Shown here piece by piece: positions 7,958-62,875 of a stretch of DNA of 64,000 bases. Source of the stretch: Chitinispirillia bacterium. GTDB taxonomy: Bacteria; Fibrobacterota; Chitinivibrionia; Chitinivibrionales; Chitinispirillaceae. Both the position numbers and the translations under genes were made by a program. Numbering within the stretch: position 1 is the stretch's first letter; each line of letters starts with the position of its first letter. Below the pieces are notes generated by a model, which searched no databases, had not been told where the DNA came from, and saw only the letters and a program-made list of their open reading frames with translations. Location of the stretch: NCBI GenBank assembly GCA_009784115.1, contig WRCH01000002.1, positions 174 through 64,173 on the forward strand, given 5' to 3'.

Positions 7958-8142
7958 AGATATTTATATCCCATAATCAAAAGATGCAATAATCGCATAA
8001 ATAAAGGGAACAGCAATGGATATGCCGAAAACAAGGAACAGCGGCACAGTGTTTATCAAGACGCAAGCCAATATTTAATTGGTACTTCAATAAACGCAAT
8101 CATCTCATATTCAACGCGGCACAGATTATTTTTATACATATC

Positions 8143-8517
8143 AGGAGGATCGGGCAGCCGCCGCAAGTACGCTTGCGGAGGAAAGTCCGGGCACCGCAGG
8201 ACAGGATACCTTTTTACAGAGGGGCCCGCAAGGGTACGGAAAGTGCTGCAGAGAGAAGACCGCTCTTTTTAACTAAGGGGTGAGTTGTGAAAGGGCGGGG
8301 TAAGAGCCCGCCGCGCCGGTGTAAACCGGCGGCTGGTAAACCCTATCCGGTGCAAGGCCAAGCAGGCAGAGTTCCCCTTTACCGGGGTGGGAGTGGTTCC
8401 GCTCCTTTCTTTGCCGGGTAGGCCGCTCAATGTTTCAAAACGTGAGTTTTGAGGCCAGACAAATGGCTGCCTCTTCCGGTAACGGGAAAGACAGAACCCG
8501 GCTTACAGATCCTCCTC
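8143..8517 (+). ncRNA. rnpB: RNase P RNA, bacterial type A
   Basis: Contains the universally conserved P4 strands GAGGAAAGTCCGGGC and ACAGAACCCGGCTTA. The P1 helix is AGGAGGATC / GATCCTCCT, and the length is about 375 nt. Confidence 0.92.
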
Positions 8518-8528
8518 TTTTTATGATC

Positions 8529-8634
8529 TATTAAGGCGGCAGTTAAATGTCGCCACCTCCGGCACATCGACTGCACGAACCATCGTGAGGCCGCTGTACC
8601 GGAGGTTGCGGCATTTAACTGCCGGAGTAATATA
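8529..8634 (+). repeat. Structured repeat family B, copy B1 (about 105-nt extended hairpin)
   Basis: GGCAGTTAAATGTCGCCACCTCCGG pairs with CCGGAGGTTGCGGCATTTAACTGCC around the conserved core CACATCGACTGCACGAACCATCGTGAGGCCGCTGTA. Related copies are at 16516 and 60186. Confidence 0.85.
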
Positions 8635-8650
8635 ATGAATCATTATCCGA

Positions 8651-8707
8651 AATCCCCGGGTTAAAACCCGGGGCCGCAGGCTTGCACCCCTAAAGGGGTG
8701 CGGAAAA
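8651..8707 (+). repeat. Twin-hairpin repeat family C, copy C1
   Basis: CCCCGGGTTAAAACCCGGGG followed by GCACCCCTAAAGGGGTGC. Near-identical copies are at 24421 and 29160. Confidence 0.85.
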
Positions 8708-10125: not shown

Positions 10126-11874
10126 TCATACCCGGTTTTGCATCTCTTTGGGCGCACTTCTTTTCTTTTTTGAAAATCTCTCGCGTGACATTTTTGTTTT
10201 TTCTTTTGTACGGAAGCCGCGCTTGCCATCCCCCCAATCTCTCTTGTCTTTATTATCAGATGTTGGAGACGCGCGTTGAATAAGCGCGTCTTTTCCGCCC
10301 TTATTTTTAAATTTTGAGAGAATTATTTCTGCTTCCGCAAGGGGTACTGTAACAAATGAGAACCGGTCTAATATCTGAATATCTTCAATTAATTTTATAT
10401 CTATACCTGCCTCATTTACTATAAATTCCGATAAAAGTTTTTTTGTCGCTTTGCTGCTCCTGCCAAGCGCTATAAAGAGACGTACTCCTTCGCTTTTTTT
10501 GGGATGATCATCCTTGCCAAAAGAGCGCTCCGCAGGCCCTTTCTCTTTTTTGCGGTAAACGGGAGTGATCTGACGGTAGCTGCTTCTGTCAAGAACACGG
10601 CCGTATGAATTTTTAAGAACAGAAGCTAAAAGCGTCTGCGGGTCTTTACCGCCCGACAACAGCTCACGCGCCCACAAATCAAATACCGAACCTGATAAAT
10701 CAGAAACATTTTGAAATGATTTCGTAATCCGCTCTCTTTTCTGTTCTATTATTTGAGATACTTCCGGTACCTCTTTTCTTCTCATAGAGGCGTTTACGCT
10801 TCTTTTTATAAATCCAAGACGGCTAAACTCGCGGGAGGTGATAAATGTAATCGCGGTACCGTGGCTCCCCGCGCGCCCCGTGCGTCCTATGCGGTGTACG
10901 TAGCTCTCGGCGTCCTGAGGCAGGCCGTAATTTATTACATGCGAGAGGTTACTGATATCAATACCCCTTGCCGCCACATCTGTAGCGACAAGCATTGTTG
11001 CTGTTTTTTTCCGAAATTTACCAAGAATCTGCTCGCGCTGCGCCTGAGAGATATCACCATGCAAACCCTCTGCGCTATAGCCTCTGTCGCCAAGCTGGCG
11101 CACAAGCTCGTCTACCTCAGTTTTCATTCTGCAAAAAACTATGCCGTAGAAGTTTTCCTCCATGTCAACGATTCTGCACAGCGCCTCAAAACGGTCATGC
11201 TGGGCTACTTCATAATATATCTGATCTGTAAGTCCTGTCAATAAACTTGTTTTGGTTTTTACATGCTCTATTTGCTTCATATAACCGGCGGCGAGTTTTT
11301 TAATTCGCTCCGGCATGGTAGCGCTAAATAAAAAAGTGCGCCGTCCTTGCGGGGTTTCACTGAGAATTCTTTCGATATCTTCAATAAAACCCATGTTGAG
11401 CATCTCATCTGCCTCATCAAGAACAAAAAAACGCACGTTTTGAAGTTTAAGCGCGCCCCGCTCTATCAGATCAATCACTCTTCCCGGTGTACCCACTGCA
11501 ATAGAGACGCCTTTTTTCAGTTTAGAGAGCTGAATTGAGATCGCCTGCCCGCCGTATATAGGGGCGACCGTTATGCGGCTCTCTCTCCCTTTAAGCGAAT
11601 TTATCTCCTCGCATACCTGAAGAACAAGCTCCCTTGTAGGCGCAAGGATAACCGCCTGTACATGTGTGATTGACGGGTCGAGCAACTCAATGAGAGGCAG
11701 GGCGAAAGCGGCGGTTTTTCCTGTTCCGGTCTGCGCCTGAGCAATTAGATCACACTCATTTCCAAGCATAACCGGTATCACAAGAGACTGAATTTCTGTG
11801 GGCTCTTCAAAACCTTTAGCGTTAACGGCGCCTAAAGTTTTATCTGATAACCCAAGATTTTTAAATTTTTCCAT
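10126..11874 (-). CDS. deaD: DEAD-box ATP-dependent RNA helicase (DeaD/CsdA-like, with C-terminal RNA-binding extension)
   Basis: Q motif, AQTGTGKT, DEAD, SAT and HRIGRTGRAG motifs, plus a basic C-terminal tail. Confidence 0.9.
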   Translation of the reverse strand: MEKFKNLGLSDKTLGAVNAKGFEEPTEIQSLVIPVMLGNECDLIAQAQTGTGKTAAFALPLIELLDPSITHVQAVILAPTRELVLQVCEEINSLKGRESRITVAPIYGGQAISIQLSKLKKGVSIAVGTPGRVIDLIERGALKLQNVRFFVLDEADEMLNMGFIEDIERILSETPQGRRTFLFSATMPERIKKLAAGYMKQIEHVKTKTSLLTGLTDQIYYEVAQHDRFEALCRIVDMEENFYGIVFCRMKTEVDELVRQLGDRGYSAEGLHGDISQAQREQILGKFRKKTATMLVATDVAARGIDISNLSHVINYGLPQDAESYVHRIGRTGRAGSHGTAITFITSREFSRLGFIKRSVNASMRRKEVPEVSQIIEQKRERITKSFQNVSDLSGSVFDLWARELLSGGKDPQTLLASVLKNSYGRVLDRSSYRQITPVYRKKEKGPAERSFGKDDHPKKSEGVRLFIALGRSSKATKKLLSEFIVNEAGIDIKLIEDIQILDRFSFVTVPLAEAEIILSKFKNKGGKDALIQRASPTSDNKDKRDWGDGKRGFRTKEKTKMSRERFSKKKRSAPKEMQNRV

Positions 11875-13004: not shown

Positions 13005-13114
13005 TATGTACTGCATAACGGCACGCGTTATACACTGTGCCGCTAAGCAACCTCACGGCCTCACGTGCAGTTGCGTGCGGTGCAGTGTGAACGCGTGCCG
13101 CGCGTACCGGTATA
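13005..13114 (+). repeat. Structured repeat family A, copy A1 (forward orientation)
   Basis: It has the conserved core TGCCGCTAAGCAACCTCACGGCC..GTGCAGTTGCGTGCGGTGCAG flanked by the complementary arms CGGCACGCGTTATACACTG / CAGTGTGAACGCGTGCCG. Confidence 0.85.
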
Positions 13115-13747: not shown

Positions 13748-13843
13748 TATACCGGTACACGGCATAAATCTACACTGCACTGCACGCAGGGCCGGCTCTG
13801 TTGCTTAGCGGCACAGTGTAGATTTATGCCGTTATGCAGTATA
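13748..13843 (-). repeat. Structured repeat family A, copy A2 (reverse orientation, short-core variant)
   Basis: The arms are perfectly complementary (CGGCATAAATCTACACTG / CAGTGTAGATTTATGCCG). The core is GCACGCAGGGCCGGCTCTGTTGCTTAGCGGCA. Confidence 0.85.
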
Positions 13844-13968: not shown

Positions 13969-14036
13969 TATACCGAATCACGGCACGCGTTTACCGGTAT
14001 ATACTGACTAACTGCACAGTGTAGATTTATGCCGTG
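13969..14036. repeat. Family A fragment / chimeric copy A3
   Basis: The left end resembles the A1 arm (CGGCACGCG) and the right end is identical to the A2 right arm (CAGTGTAGATTTATGCCG). The central core is missing. Confidence 0.6.
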
Positions 14037-14097
14037 AAGTGGTATAGCAGAAAAGCAGGGCGGGTCAATACACTCCCGTTGACAGAGGTGCGGACAG

Positions 14098-16476: not shown

Positions 16477-16515
16477 AAACGATATTCTTTCTTTGCGGAA
16501 AAAACAGATGTAAGC

Positions 16516-16621
16516 TATTAAGGCGGCAATTAAATGTCGCAACTCCCGGCACATCGACTGCACGAACCATCGTGAGGCCGCTGTACCGGAGGCTTCGGCA
16601 TTTAACTGCCGAAGTAATATA
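16516..16621 (+). repeat. Structured repeat family B, copy B2
   Basis: It has the same core, CCGGCACATCGACTGCACGAACCATCGTGAGGCCGCTGTACCGG. The stem is more degenerate than in B1 and B3. Confidence 0.8.
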
Positions 16622-19146: not shown

Positions 19147-19823
19147 TAATAGAGATAACTATCGACGGGAAAGTCATAAAAGTAAACGATGGTGTTACAG
19201 TATTAGACGCTGCGCGTCAGGCAGGTATTGATATCCCGACATTGTGTTACTGTGAAAAAATTGAACCGTGCGTATCCTGCTTTGTTTGTGTTGTAAAGAT
19301 AAAAGGACAGGAAAAATTTATTCCCGCATGCGCTACAAAAGTACAAAATGGTATGATTGTCATCAATAATTCAGAAGAAGTGAGAGATTGCCGCCGTAAG
19401 GCGCTCGCGCTTTTACTCAGTGAGCACGTAGCTTTGCCCAACGGTCTTAAATGTAAATGCGCCTCAAAAACAAAATGCCGTTTGAAAGCCTGCGCTGAGG
19501 AATACGGCGCTGATCATACACGCTACACCATTGGACAACGCAGAGAAGAAACCCGCAAAATATACGACAGCGGACTTGTTCACGAGCCGGGCAAATGTAT
19601 TACATGCGGTAAATGCGTTACGATTACAAAAGAGAATGGGATCAAGCCCGGCTTATCATTTAAAGGCAGAGGGTCGAACGTATGTATATCAGCTCCATTT
19701 GAAATACCATTTGACAAAGCTATGGGCGAAGCCCTTCAATTATGTGTTGATTCATGCCCTACGGGAGCTTTATGGATAACGCCTAAATACAAAAATGATA
19801 AATCGGAATCAGCTCATGAATAG
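19143..19823 (+). CDS. NuoG-N-terminal / HoxU-like Fe-S protein (2Fe-2S plus 4Fe-4S), no catalytic domain
   Basis: ITIDGKVIKV...TLCYCEKIEPCVSCFVCVV...ACAT is a plant-type 2Fe-2S pattern. CITCGKCV...CVDSCPTGAL is a 4Fe-4S pattern. It overlaps the upstream gene by 4 bp. Confidence 0.7.
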   Translation: MIIEITIDGKVIKVNDGVTVLDAARQAGIDIPTLCYCEKIEPCVSCFVCVVKIKGQEKFIPACATKVQNGMIVINNSEEVRDCRRKALALLLSEHVALPNGLKCKCASKTKCRLKACAEEYGADHTRYTIGQRREETRKIYDSGLVHEPGKCITCGKCVTITKENGIKPGLSFKGRGSNVCISAPFEIPFDKAMGEALQLCVDSCPTGALWITPKYKNDKSESAHE

Positions 19824-20988
19824 GTTGATATTGATCATGCGATATTTATTCTGTATCTCAATTGTCGTGATATTCTGTTTTTCCTGCGACGGTTCAAAAG
19901 AGCAGAAATCCTCATCACAAGCAGTAAATTTTTTACCTGTCCCGTGGACGCATTTCCGCGGAAACGCCTCTCTTGATGGAATCTCTTTGGGCCATGTTTC
20001 TGATTCCATGAAATTATTGTGGAGTTTCAAAACCGGCGGCTCCTGCATTTCGTCTCCTGTTACAGATGGGAAAAATGTTTTTATCGGTTCGCTTGACAGT
20101 ACATTGTATTCGCTTAATATTATTACCGGTGATCTTGTATGGAAAACAAAACTTGGTGACGAGATTGAGGCATCGCCTGTTATTTTTGAGGATGTGATTT
20201 TAATAGGCGATCTTAGCGGGAATTTCTATTCTGTAAATAAACAGAGCGGAGAAATAATTTGGAAATTTAAAGCTCCCGGAGTCAGAAGCAAAATCGTCGG
20301 CTCCGCCAACATCATCAACGAGAAAAAACAGGTTTTATTCGGCAGTCACAATGATACTCTTTACTGTTTAAATATTGCTGATGGAGAAGTTGTTTGGAGG
20401 TATCAATCAGAAAGCTATATTAACGGAACTCCGGCAACAGACGGGGTAAGCATCGTTTTTGGCGGATGCGACTCTCATTTACATGTGGTAGACGCGTCAA
20501 ATGGCGCTGGTGCGGGAAAAGTCGATGTCGGTTCGCATATCGCCGGTTCTGCAGTCTTAAAAGATAATTTCGCATACGTTGGCAGTTACGGCAGAAAATT
20601 ATTTGGAATCAATACTAAAACAATGGAAATCGCATGGACATACGAGAATGACGGCCGCAAGGAACCGTTTTTCGCGTCACCAGCTCTTAAAGATACATTT
20701 CTTATCGCTCCGTCAAGAGACAAATTTGTACACGCGGTCTCATCTCTCACCGGTAATCTTATATGGAAATTCGCCGCAAAAGGCGCTGTTGACAGTTCAC
20801 CGGTTATTGCGGGAGATCGGGTAATTGCCGGATGCGAATCGGGTTTCCTTTATCTGCTTGATCTTAAAACCGGGGAGCATATAAATTCATTTGATATTGG
20901 AGCCGCTATCTCAGGCGCCCCGCTTGTGAGCGGGGCGATTGCGGTTGTTGGAGATGACAGCGGGATGGTCAGTGCGTTATACTGGTAA
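19816..20988 (+). CDS. PQQ-like beta-propeller repeat lipoprotein (BamB-like fold)
   Basis: A lipobox (FCFSC) and repeated motifs of the form G.lYa.d..tG..vW. The ORF is open from 19795 and the start choice is uncertain. Confidence 0.7.
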   Translation: MNRLILIMRYLFCISIVVIFCFSCDGSKEQKSSSQAVNFLPVPWTHFRGNASLDGISLGHVSDSMKLLWSFKTGGSCISSPVTDGKNVFIGSLDSTLYSLNIITGDLVWKTKLGDEIEASPVIFEDVILIGDLSGNFYSVNKQSGEIIWKFKAPGVRSKIVGSANIINEKKQVLFGSHNDTLYCLNIADGEVVWRYQSESYINGTPATDGVSIVFGGCDSHLHVVDASNGAGAGKVDVGSHIAGSAVLKDNFAYVGSYGRKLFGINTKTMEIAWTYENDGRKEPFFASPALKDTFLIAPSRDKFVHAVSSLTGNLIWKFAAKGAVDSSPVIAGDRVIAGCESGFLYLLDLKTGEHINSFDIGAAISGAPLVSGAIAVVGDDSGMVSALYW

Positions 20989-21078
20989 ACGACACGCGCT
21001 TACACTGCACCGCACGCAACTGCACGCAGAGCCGTGAGGCTGCTTAGCGGCACAGTGTAAGCGCGTGCCGTACTGAGT
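20978..21078 (-). repeat. Structured repeat family A, copy A4 (reverse orientation)
   Basis: Arms CGACACGCGCTTACACTG / CAGTGTAAGCGCGTGCCG around a full core. The outer arm TATACTGGTAA contains the stop codon of the PQQ-propeller gene. Confidence 0.85.
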
Positions 21079-21109
21079 CGTGAGTCGTAGTTTTTTTAAC
21101 CGGACTCCG

Positions 21110-24420: not shown

Positions 24421-24477
24421 AATCCCCGGATTAAAACCCGGGGCCACAATCTTGCACCCCTAAAGGGGTGCGGGAAA
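24421..24477 (+). repeat. Twin-hairpin repeat family C, copy C2 (in the flgB-flgC intercistronic gap)
   Basis: CCCCGGATTAAAACCCGGGG plus GCACCCCTAAAGGGGTGC, near-identical to C1. Confidence 0.85.
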
Positions 24478-28991: not shown

Positions 28992-29096
28992 TATACTGAA
29001 TCACGGCATAAATTAGCACTGTGCCGCTAAGCAACCTCACGGCCCTGCGTGCAGTTGCGTGCGGTGCAGTGCTAATTTATGCCGTACACCAGTATA
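28992..29096 (+). repeat. Structured repeat family A, copy A5 (forward)
   Basis: Perfect arms CGGCATAAATTAGCACTG / CAGTGCTAATTTATGCCG, a full core, and outer TATACTG / CAGTATA ends. Confidence 0.88.
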
Positions 29097-39718: not shown

Positions 39719-39808
39719 TATACCAATACACGGCATAAGTCTGCACTGTGCCGCTAAGCAACAGAGCCGGCCCTGCGTGCGGTGCAGACTTATGCCGTCA
39801 ACAGTATA
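39719..39808 (+). repeat. Structured repeat family A, copy A6 (forward, short-core variant)
   Basis: Arms CGGCATAAGTCTGCAC / GTGCAGACTTATGCCG and core TGCCGCTAAGCAACAGAGCCGGCCCTGCGTGC. Confidence 0.85.
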
Positions 39809-44069: not shown

Positions 44070-44175
44070 TATACTGCATAACGGCATAAATTTACACTGT
44101 GCCGCTAAGCAGCAGAGCCGGCCCTGCGTGCAGCTGCGTGCGGTGCAGTGCGGATTTATGCCGTGTATCAGTATA
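44070..44175 (+). repeat. Structured repeat family A, copy A7 (forward)
   Basis: TATACTG...CAGTATA ends and a full core with the GCAGC/GCTGC variant of the apical stem. Confidence 0.88.
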
Positions 44176-44192: not shown

Positions 44193-44299
44193 GGCACCTC
44201 TAAAAACGTAGTTCGGGCACGGTGCAGTATGCGATAACATCGTGATAAGCGCAGTTAGAGCGTACTGTACCGTGTTCGAACGGAGTTTTTAGAGGTGCC
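44193..44299. repeat. Long imperfect palindrome (about 41-bp arms) abutting the PAP2 stop codon
   Basis: GGCACCTCTAAAAAC...GTTCG..CACGGT.CAGTA.GC pairs with GC.TACTG.ACCGTG..CGAAC...GTTTTTAGAGGTGCC. Confidence 0.7.
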
Positions 44300-45172
44300 C
44301 TAAAATAATATTGACGCCGTCATTGCCGCTCCGCGGGGAACTATCCGCACATTAAAATTTTCTATGTTTTGATGCGGACCCAAAAACGCGCTGTACGCCG
44401 CGTTGGCAAAAAAAGTCCCTATTAAAGCGCCTGCTAAAACATCTGCGGGATAGTGTTTTTCGCCCTCAATACGCCCCCATGCCGTAGCTATAGTAAGTGT
44501 AGTTAAGGCGGCGTATGCGGGATAACTGTATACCTTGGGAAGAGACATGCTGCTTATCATCCTTGCGGTGTAAGCGTTAGCTACCGCGGCAGAAGATGTA
44601 TGGCCGGAAGGAAAAGAGTAGACGTTTGATGAGTCGGGCCTTAAACGTCCGGTGGTTATTTTCAAAAGATGAGTTGATCCTGATGTCAATCCAAGAGAGA
44701 GAGCTCCGGCAGACGCGGCGGCAACCGGCGCGTGAAGCCGGGGCGATATTCCAAATTCACTCCCAATAGGACAGCCGTCACCGTTTTTATCTTGATCGGA
44801 TGATGAATGCAAAGGAAGATACTTTATGGAATAAGTGAGCGCGGCTGCTCCTGCGGATGCAATAACAAACAGGTCGCTTGCTCTTTTGGCGTTTTCAATT
44901 GAACCGAAGACTGGAGTGTTTTTTGCTGCGTAGTATGAAATTTGCTTATCTTTCCCAGACGCCGCGGTAACAACAAGCGCGGCAGCGGTGATTCCCATCT
45001 GCGGCTGAAACGCCGCGCTTTTGAGCGCCGCGCCTATTCTTCTTTTGTCAGGCAGCAGCGTTGGGTCTTCAAAAGAACCGGATCGCAATACCCTGTTGGA
45101 ACAGCCGCTAAAAAAGCAGGTCAGCAAAATTATGCACAATAAAAAGAGATATTTTGATTTTTCTTTCACCAC
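44300..45172 (-). CDS. PAP2-family (type 2 phosphatidic acid phosphatase-like) lipoprotein
   Basis: PAP2 motifs (RPDSS...PSGHTS...GRIEGEKHYPADV) and a lipobox FFSGC. I infer the start at tandem GTG codons (45169 or 45172), because the longer ORF to 45247 runs into a repeat element. Confidence 0.7.
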   Translation of the reverse strand: MVKEKSKYLFLLCIILLTCFFSGCSNRVLRSGSFEDPTLLPDKRRIGAALKSAAFQPQMGITAAALVVTAASGKDKQISYYAAKNTPVFGSIENAKRASDLFVIASAGAAALTYSIKYLPLHSSSDQDKNGDGCPIGSEFGISPRLHAPVAAASAGALSLGLTSGSTHLLKITTGRLRPDSSNVYSFPSGHTSSAAVANAYTARMISSMSLPKVYSYPAYAALTTLTIATAWGRIEGEKHYPADVLAGALIGTFFANAAYSAFLGPHQNIENFNVRIVPRGAAMTASILF

Positions 45173-45522
45173 AGCGCACTTTATTGATTTATTGAATCTT
45201 ATTGAAGTACCAATTAAATATTGCGCCGTACCGCTACACGACTGCACTACAGCATTGAGGTCGTTCCGCGGTACAGCGCACCGTGTTTATCGAGGCGTAA
45301 GCCAATATTTAATCGCGGGATGTATAATACCTAAAATACTATATGCCCCAACGATTTATGATTCATCTTTTGCATATGCGGAACAGTAATTTTAACATTT
45401 TCCATATTCCCCCCTTTCCAATATAGTATCTTGAATAGGTAATAATTGGCGCAATTATTGTTTAAACCAAACGTAATCCGGCGGACGCCGGGGTCAAAAG
45501 AAGTTAAGTATACCCTAACAAA

Positions 45523-53751: not shown

Positions 53752-53854
53752 TATACTGAATTACGGCATAAATCTACAGCAGCCTCACGGCACTGCGTGC
53801 AGTTGCGTGCGGTGCGGTGCGGTGCGGTGTAGATTTATGCCGTGTACCTGTATA
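53752..53854 (+). repeat. Structured repeat family A, copy A8 (forward; left core deleted, GGTGC x4 expansion)
   Basis: CGGCATAAATCTACA / TGTAGATTTATGCCG arms. The core lacks CTGTGCCGCTAAG and carries GCGGTGCGGTGCGGTGCGGTG. Confidence 0.8.
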
Positions 53855-60185: not shown

Positions 60186-60290
60186 TATTACTTCGGCAGT
60201 TAAAGGCCGCAATTCCCGGTACAGCGGCCTCACGATGGTTCGTGCAGTCGATGTGCCGGGAATTGCGGCCTTTAAATTGCCACCTTAATA
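60186..60290 (-). repeat. Structured repeat family B, copy B3 (reverse orientation)
   Basis: The reverse complement carries the B core. The stem AAAGGCCGCAATTCCCGG / CCGGGAATTGCGGCCTTT differs from B1 but is self-complementary. Confidence 0.85.
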
Positions 60291-62770: not shown

Positions 62771-62875
62771 TATACCGGTACGCGGCACGATTTAACACTG
62801 CACCGCACGCAACTGCACGCAGGGCCGTGAGGCTGCTTAGCGGCACAGTGTTAAATCGTGCCGCGGAGCAGTATA
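62771..62875 (-). repeat. Structured repeat family A, copy A9 (reverse orientation)
   Basis: Perfect arms CGGCACGATTTAACACTG / CAGTGTTAAATCGTGCCG around a full core. It overlaps the last 12 codons and the stop codon of the aminopeptidase gene. Confidence 0.88.

Follow-up and report, generated by a model that had tools for sequence, protein, structure and literature searches.

Bacterial miniature inverted-repeat transposable elements (MITEs) are defined as sequences of less than 200 bp with terminal inverted repeats (TIRs), 5'-TA-3' termini and a target-site duplication, whose transcripts form long stem-loops (PMC2229807). Such elements include Correia/NEMIS in Neisseria, ERIC/IRU in enterobacteria and RUP in pneumococcus (the last linked to IS630-Spn1). 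In another group of hairpins of ~100 nt, the REPINs built from repetitive extragenic palindromic (REP) sequences, compensatory changes are common and hairpins of single-stranded DNA have been proposed (PMC3116915). Here we describe a repeat, designated family A, in a 64,000-nt stretch of DNA from a Chitinispirillia bacterium (positions 174 to 64,173 of contig WRCH01000002.1, assembly GCA_009784115.1; hereafter, the window), with the focal copy A7 at 44070-44175 on the plus strand. In our reading, to which we assign a probability of roughly 0.6, family A is a non-autonomous mobile element of the MITE type, ~105 bp long and moved in trans. It adds a new family to a known kind of element, from a lineage that has been little studied, and is one branch of a superfamily with two further hairpin families, B and C, with which it has only the apex and the TA/TAT termini in common. 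Beyond the textbook MITE it displays a conserved apex placed on unrelated stems and a strand asymmetry that is linked to propagation.

Copies of family A are 90-110 bp long and contain no open reading frame (ORF). Like Correia, ERIC and RUP elements (~100-160 bp, no ORF, intergenic), they possess TIRs (7 bp in ERIC, as in family A), 5'-TA-3' at both ends and a TA duplication; furthermore, they form one long stem-loop transcript (here as a predicted fold), and adjacent ORFs are extended or altered (PMC2229807). With TIRs, TA duplication, size and the lack of an ORF taken together, family A fits the published definition of a bacterial MITE. The original prediction, made from the letters of the window, had described the architecture as "REP/BIME- or MITE-like" (BIME, bacterial interspersed mosaic element); TIRs, missing coding capacity, the TA duplication and presence/absence differences between relatives sharpen this to MITE-like. 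However, there is no sequence similarity to the described families, and no cognate insertion sequence was identified for family A. In contrast to these families, its most conserved part is the apex, which spans unrelated stems, and not the terminal 20-30 bp, and the co-variation between its arms is strong and strand-specific.

The elements insert at TA dinucleotides, in many cases at a stop codon or directly behind one, leave TA on both sides and turn over fast between relatives. The relatives compared are 78-88% identical (blastn), and their element content differs in every comparable intergenic region. The stop codon of an aminopeptidase gene is occupied by four different inserts or none in five genomes. 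The empty allele (L082) reads GGTAAAATA-TA-AAAAGATTGAC, with one TA that is preceded by ATA, whereas the allele filled with a family C element (L077) reads GGCAGGATA-TA-[TTGATG...GAGCAA]-TA-AAAGGATTGAC. One TA in the empty and two TAs in the filled allele amount to a target-site duplication of the kind that the original prediction proposed to look for. Family A copy A9 of the window (62771-62875, minus strand, 118.7 bits with the covariance model described below) is inserted at the TA of the same stop codon and begins on the same TA as the L082/L077 site (GGTAGAATA-TA-TACTGC...). It lengthens the aminopeptidase ORF to 357 amino acids (+11 amino acids; 62837-62875), compared with 345-346 amino acids in close relatives, and the family C element of L077 adds two codons and a TGA stop (11030-11045). 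In L079 this hot spot is occupied by a different inverted repeat, AT-rich and ~75 nt long (11040-11120, AGATTTAGGATTAGTTTTTAG...CTAAAATCTAAAAACTAAA), and in L083 by an unrelated insert of ~55 nt.

Other sites behave in the same way. One relative (L051) carries family A at a position that is empty in the window, with TA at the junction of the filled L051 allele and the empty window allele, and one and the same site is occupied by family B in L051 and by family C in L059. Directly downstream of the RNase P RNA gene (bacterial class A; 8142-8521 in the window, 241 bits), the window carries a family B copy (8528-8632, minus strand, 48.9 bits with the family A model), and L066 a different, more diverged hairpin of the superfamily. 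Moreover, two mini copies of family A at 13969-14046 share a single TA, as insertion into a flanking TA would produce. In L071, a metagenome-assembled genome (MAG) of the Chitinispirillales with ~76% identity in genes, 21 kb of syntenic DNA contain no copy. It was discarded as a source of exact empty sites, its intergenic DNA being too diverged for placing junctions; the same applied to the comparison of L079 with L082 for another family C copy. Exact-protein look-ups for closer strains (an 802-amino-acid protein and RRM proteins) returned the same contig only, and no record was found for P0001.

Each family A copy can be folded into one long hairpin, as claimed before, with folding z-scores of -5.9 to -10.4. 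From outside in, it consists of TA at each end, a 7-nt TIR, an asymmetric internal loop of 3-5 nt, a stem of ~24 bp that varies in sequence and retains its pairing, a conserved inner stem with tandem U:G/G:U pairs, and an apical module of the form helix-CU-CACG-loop-CGUG-CA-helix. Pairs were counted in an alignment of 31 copies on a manually specified structure, in which 92.4% of cells are paired. The predicted co-variation of the basal stem is borne out: in the long stem, 18 pairs have both sides changed, compared with a mean of 10.2 in shuffled alignments, and none of 500 shuffles reached 18; controls with a slid structure gave 4-11 such pairs. There are at least seven distinct and fully compensated stem haplotypes (e.g., CGGCATAAATCTAC/GTAGATTTATGCCG, CGGCACGCGTTTAC/GTAAGCGCGTGCCG, CCGATAAATTTTG/TAAGATTTATCGG, TGGCATAAATCCAC/GTGGATTTATGCCA). 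Synthesis of one arm from the other by fold-back was considered as the source of this pairing and rejected, as wobble pairs, internal loops and apex asymmetries are inherited intact.

Some layers of the hairpin had to be redefined. The wobble pairs of the conserved inner stem CACTGTGCCGC/GCGGTGCAGTG are real (U:G is found at pair 34/89 in all of 28 copies, and at pair 35/88 there are 20 G:U and 7 G:C), but this stem is intact in only five of the eight copies of the window: the 3' half of the apical helix is missing from A2 and A6, and the 5' inner stem from A8. The apical helix is not GCAAC/GTTGC "in most copies", as had been stated, but only in A1 and A5; A4, A8 and A9 have GCAGC/GTTGC, which includes a G:T pair, and A7 has GCAGC/GCTGC. 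The outer ends had been counted as a layer of the hairpin as well. The terminal 7 nt, TATACYG/CRGTATA, are kept in 26-28 of the 31 copies, and column pair 8/116 is C:A in 13, T:A in 10 and T:G in 5 copies. Because the outer pairs do not co-vary over their seven positions, these ends are preserved as a sequence, i.e. as a TIR, and not as a structural helix.

A search of the window and related contigs with the apical motif revealed families B and C and thereby a property that had been missed, namely that the apex of family A is common to at least two other hairpin families of the window. The apical module C-CU-CAC-G...GUG-CA-G is invariant across families A, B and C, whose stems are unrelated in sequence, and the helix closing the module co-varies (GCAAC/GUUGC, GCAGC/GCUGC, GCGGC/GCCGC, CGAC/GUCG, AGAC/GUCU). 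Family B elements are ~105 nt long, end in TATTA...TAATA and score 37-49 bits with the family A model; besides the copy downstream of the RNase P RNA gene, the window has copies at 16515-16619 (minus strand, 37.2 bits) and 60186-60290 (plus strand, 49.4 bits). Family C elements end in TATTGA...TCAATA. The family C copy of the window (45200-45330, minus strand, 30.4 bits) has the ends TATTGA...TATAATA and a degenerate apex, CCTCAAT...GTGCAG; this reverse-oriented copy overlaps the annotated GTG start of the ORF at 44300-45247. A right-arm fragment of family C is located at ~8040-8095, just upstream of the RNase P RNA gene.

The two strands of these elements are not equivalent. The strand reading CCUCACG in the apex (the forward strand) gives the better RNA fold in 27 of 31 family A, five of six family B (with one tie) and all eight family C elements, i.e. 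in 40 of 45, with mean differences between the strands of -7.5, -6.4 and -11.1 kcal/mol for A, B and C, respectively. With DNA energy parameters the difference is just 2-3 kcal/mol, so the folded strand may be either single-stranded DNA or RNA. In a fold-free test, which avoids the bias of folding algorithms, we aligned the left arm to the reverse complement of the right arm and classified the transition mismatches. G:T exceeded A:C at 37 sites and A:C exceeded G:T at 10 sites (p = 1e-4); family C alone contributed 42 G:T and 7 A:C cells. The wobble asymmetry between the strands noted in the original prediction is thus real and statistically supported. Among variants found in one or two copies, G:T and A:C are nearly balanced (25 vs 20), whereas variants found in several copies comprise 21 G:T and 3 A:C (Fisher p = 0.008 for rare vs spread). 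The bias follows the orientation of the apex alike in copies co-oriented with the neighbouring gene and in copies oriented against it. Mutation bias and local selection were rejected as its cause, as it tracks the apex whatever the gene orientation and is absent in rare variants. As rare variants are symmetric and those that have spread are mainly G:T, mutations arise symmetrically and only those that pair on one strand spread. The asymmetry is therefore a property of propagation, and not of local transcription or local mutation bias, and it suggests that copying involves a folded single strand of one specific polarity.

As a MITE, family A would be mobilised in trans, by a transposase whose gene lies elsewhere in the genome. 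An enzyme of the IS630/Tc1-mariner type would be the first candidate, because TA duplication and TIRs occur together and the IS630 family makes strict TA duplications. The copying step may pass through a folded single strand with CCUCACG in its apex, or be filtered by such a strand, so that only variants retaining pairing on this strand would spread. For the host, the predicted side effects are additional C-terminal codons or a new stop codon, and a very stable hairpin in 3' untranslated regions. Several points weigh against this account. No IS630/Tc1-like ORF was detected by tblastn with IS630 and Tc1 queries in ~640 kb of loci, and likewise no Y1/HUH transposase with IS200 and RAYT queries; both results are weak negatives. 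Furthermore, no long element bounded by the family termini, i.e. no autonomous partner, was found. The clean TA duplication is that of the sister family C; for family A, the duplication would follow from a shared junction, one ambiguous empty site and the mini copies. One TA against two TAs also fits the insertion 3' of a TA by an element that itself ends in TA. Double-stranded cut-and-paste by a DDE transposase alone explains neither the arm co-variation nor the strand asymmetry; moreover, the terminal 20-30 nt of A, B and C differ, and a single transposase reading TIRs is not expected to serve all three. Finally, the orientation statistic given below (17 to 6) rests on crude ORF calls.

A more far-reaching reading is that the A/B/C superfamily would be mobilised via a strand-specific folded single-stranded DNA or RNA, recognised at the apical module and the tandem U:G/G:U pairs rather than at double-stranded TIRs, by an as yet undescribed structure-reading, TA-targeting system of the Fibrobacterota. 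We consider this a tentative and rather improbable proposal. The attC sites of integrons provide an analogy, in function only: they are imperfect palindromes of similar length, in which structure is kept and sequence is variable, one strand is functional when folded, and a basal box is followed by an unpaired spacer and a long stem. However, the elements studied here lack RYYYAAC/GTTRRRY boxes (the termini being TATAC/GTATA) and do not form same-orientation cassette arrays beside an integrase. A reader of folded DNA could also be an HUH (Y1) enzyme of the REPIN/RAYT or IS200/IS605 kind, which would recognise the folded forward strand as single-stranded DNA, cut at the TA-containing termini and re-insert the element 3' of TA. 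Such a system would account for a strand-specific hairpin constraint and for a filter at the propagation step, and the TA pattern is equally compatible with it. REPINs and family A are alike in being ~100-nt extragenic hairpins in many copies, in their compensatory changes, in long-lived diverged sub-lineages and in the proposed folded single-stranded intermediate (PMC3116915). In fact, the mean identity of family A copies is 79% within the window and 78.5% to other genomes (best cross-genome pairs, 98%), and this equal divergence indicates a long-lived population of sub-lineages rather than a recent burst. Nevertheless, we regard an HUH system as unlikely. Its tag is missing, as neither GTAG nor CGTC is conserved (the sole place of GTAG is within the most frequent haplotype of the variable stem), and the arms are not clear REP palindromes. 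A REPIN has two conserved REP ends and a variable spacer, whereas conservation is inverted in family A and comprises the apex and the 7-nt TIR; symmetric TIRs are not normal for HUH elements, and TA is present on both flanks. The host belongs to the Fibrobacterota, and the ~640 kb of loci gave no RAYT gene, with the weakness stated above. The forward strand is mostly antisense to genes and would not be the lagging-strand template if genes are co-oriented with replication, and with DNA parameters the two strands differ by only 2-3 kcal/mol. The IS200/IS605-derived PATE elements differ as well: they possess separate subterminal hairpins at the left and right ends and are without TIRs, and a target tetra- or pentanucleotide is conserved on their 5' flank only, whereas family A is a single end-to-end hairpin with TIRs, and its flanks are unconserved beyond TA.

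The large strand difference with RNA parameters, compared with the small one with DNA parameters, could be taken to mean that the elements are primarily functional structured RNAs (a terminator, stabiliser or RNase III site in 3' untranslated regions, or a small RNA), spread or retained for the benefit of the host. The G:U-specific asymmetry and the conserved tandem U:G/G:U pairs would agree with that, many copies are situated no more than 20 nt from a stop codon, and a protein might bind the invariant internal loop and hairpin of the apex. The orientation of the 45 elements relative to genes speaks against it: according to crude ORF calls, which were corrected by hand for A5 and for the family B copy next to rnpB, 17 tandem arrangements have the better-folding strand antisense and six have it sense (binomial p = 0.035), with ~6 elements between convergent and ~10 between divergent genes. 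In addition, no terminator-like call was obtained at A6 or A7 in a test for intrinsic terminators, the 3' flanks being variable and without a U-tract or T-run, and promoter-like matches are at chance level. A comparison with Rfam 15, proposed along with the original prediction, yielded no family for the elements, the Termite-flg and Termite-leu motifs of Rfam included: only RNase P reaches its gathering threshold, an E-value threshold gave no real match to the elements either, and the elements themselves gave matches to miRNA precursors of 25-33 bits, compared with thresholds of 40-116. The insertion positions vary from relative to relative, many copies have apex deletions (A2, A6, A8, L055, L058b), and the asymmetry is independent of local gene orientation. 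A primary role as terminator, stabiliser or small RNA, one of the options raised earlier, is thus hard to reconcile with the missing U-tract, the missing Rfam family, 17 antisense among 23 tandem arrangements and the copies between divergent genes, and we judge it quite improbable. As double-stranded DNA, the element might bind a nucleoid protein, gyrase or a regulator or present a cruciform to it, a role that has been proposed for REP/BIME. The intergenic locations and the short inverted repeat CACG-N6-CGTG of the apex, operator-like and conserved across families, would suit this, but such a site is strand-symmetric and hence unable to produce an excess of G:T over A:C. It would also leave the TA duplication and the turnover unexplained, and the CU/CA flanks of the conserved apex are asymmetric; we therefore deem it very improbable indeed. 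The MITE reading, with a copying step that may involve a folded single strand, is the one we prefer.

The host is a termite-gut member of the Chitinispirillia (Fibrobacterota, formerly "TG3"), an uncultured lineage known only from metagenomes; the window belongs to a metagenome contig (ENA ERZ27257304), and the nearest named relatives according to the enolase of the window are Chitinispirillales and Chitinispirillaceae MAGs (81% and 71% identity). When one genome per GTDB species was scanned with the 17-mer core of family A, 20 single, chance-like matches were obtained, none of them from a Fibrobacterota record, which implies that the source lineage is not among the representatives; the one match inspected (L011) is not an element. 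In contrast, a scan of JGI metagenomes revealed ~25 true copies, all from Ga0123353 and Ga0123356. Ga0123356 (IMG 3300010049) comes from the P3 gut compartment of Embiratermes neotenicus, a humus-feeding termite (PMC7024585, supplementary file 1). In viral contigs, the family A apex pattern had no match, and the generic apex had three in high-GC sequence, without an enclosing hairpin.

Within the window, family A is far more abundant than expected by chance, as the original prediction held. The core 17-mer CACTGTGCCGCTAAGCA occurs seven times exactly (0.16 expected) and the 15-mer GCGTGCGGTGCAGTG eight times with at most two mismatches (0.07 expected). With its filters switched off, a covariance model based on 31 copies matched exactly eight full or near-full copies (53-119 bits) and the fragment at 13969-14046 on the two strands of the whole window, and no further family A copy; finding repeats in the window also recovered every copy listed earlier. 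All coordinates given before hold, except that the fragment extends to 14046 and A4 to 21082. The copies are spaced 5-10 kb apart on both strands amid housekeeping genes (all flanking genes examined are of this kind). There are eight copies in 64 kb and more than 25 in termite-gut metagenome contigs. The superfamily of families A, B and C accounts for roughly 2% of the window, as estimated from the part lengths.

The focal copy A7 (sequence TATACTGCATAACGGCATAAATTTACACTGTGCCGCTAAGCAGCAGAGCCGGCCCTGCGTGCAGCTGCGTGCGGTGCAGTGCGGATTTATGCCGTGTATCAGTATA) is full-length with both TIRs and scores 100 bits on the plus and 52 bits on the minus strand; its apex has the helix GCAGC/GCTGC and loop variant 2 (CAGAGCCGGCC), and its RNA fold has an energy of -58.9 kcal/mol (z -6.4). 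A1 (13005-13114, plus strand, 93.3 bits) carries the stem variant CGGCACGCGTT.../...AACGCGTGCCG and the 5' end TATGTAC. A2 (13748-13843, minus strand, 78.9 bits) has lost 10 nt from the 3' half of the apex. The neighbouring match on the minus strand (13969-14046, 23.4 bits), previously taken for a single fragment, consists in reality of two internally deleted mini copies (14000-14046 and 13969-14001), each with both termini kept, which overlap by the one shared TA. A4 (20978-21082, minus strand, 95.1 bits) has a degenerate forward 5' terminus (window position 21082), and the ORF at 19795-20988 ends inside it, taking its last 10 nt and stop codon from the A4 end at 20978 (20978-20988). A5 (28992-29096, plus strand, 119 bits), located downstream of tgt, is full-length and the best match of the model. 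In A6 (39719-39808, plus strand, 52.8 bits), apex and inner stem are partly deleted. A8 (53752-53854, plus strand, 55 bits) lacks the 5' inner stem; the four-fold slippage expansion described for it is present, and its unit, read directly from the sequence, is CGGTG.

Further repeats lie in and around these loci. A 107-nt hairpin at 44193-44299 with the arms GGCACCTCTAAAAACG.../...CGGAGTTTTTAGAGGTGCC, 17 nt from A7, scores 36.7 bits with the family A model; it was rejected as a family A copy because it is devoid of the apex, and looks like a separate family. As a similar arm end adjoins the family A copy of L060, this hairpin is probably another repeat family. At 29-172, in the intergenic region in which L051 has a family A copy instead, a 50-nt AT-rich hairpin (GCTGGCACATTTAAAGGTACCATTAAATGTGCCAG) is present as two neighbouring copies with 82% identity. 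A 57-nt repeat with two short GC hairpins (CCCCGGGTTAAAACCCGGGG and GCACCCCTAAAGGGGTGC) is found at 8651-8707 and 24421-24477 (91% identical); both copies are intergenic and may be terminators or yet another small repeat. Three ~45-nt tandem units, each with the palindrome ATCTGCATA...TATGCAGAT, are located upstream of a gene for a Fic-domain protein in L079 (12350-12500) and L082 (4570-4720); they are conserved in both relatives and look operator-like.

With these elements, the termite-gut TG3 Fibrobacterota gain a well-defined superfamily of interspersed repeats. The elements create C-terminal extensions and new stop codons in genes, and their insertion hot spots could serve for strain typing and for checking assemblies. 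The contrast between symmetric rare mismatches and the G:T mismatches that have spread is a simple population-genetic sign that copying, and not local function, selects the folded single strand. If this asymmetry holds up, it would bear on how palindromic MITEs and REP-like elements amplify, and it would provide a concrete apical motif for testing against candidate enzymes.

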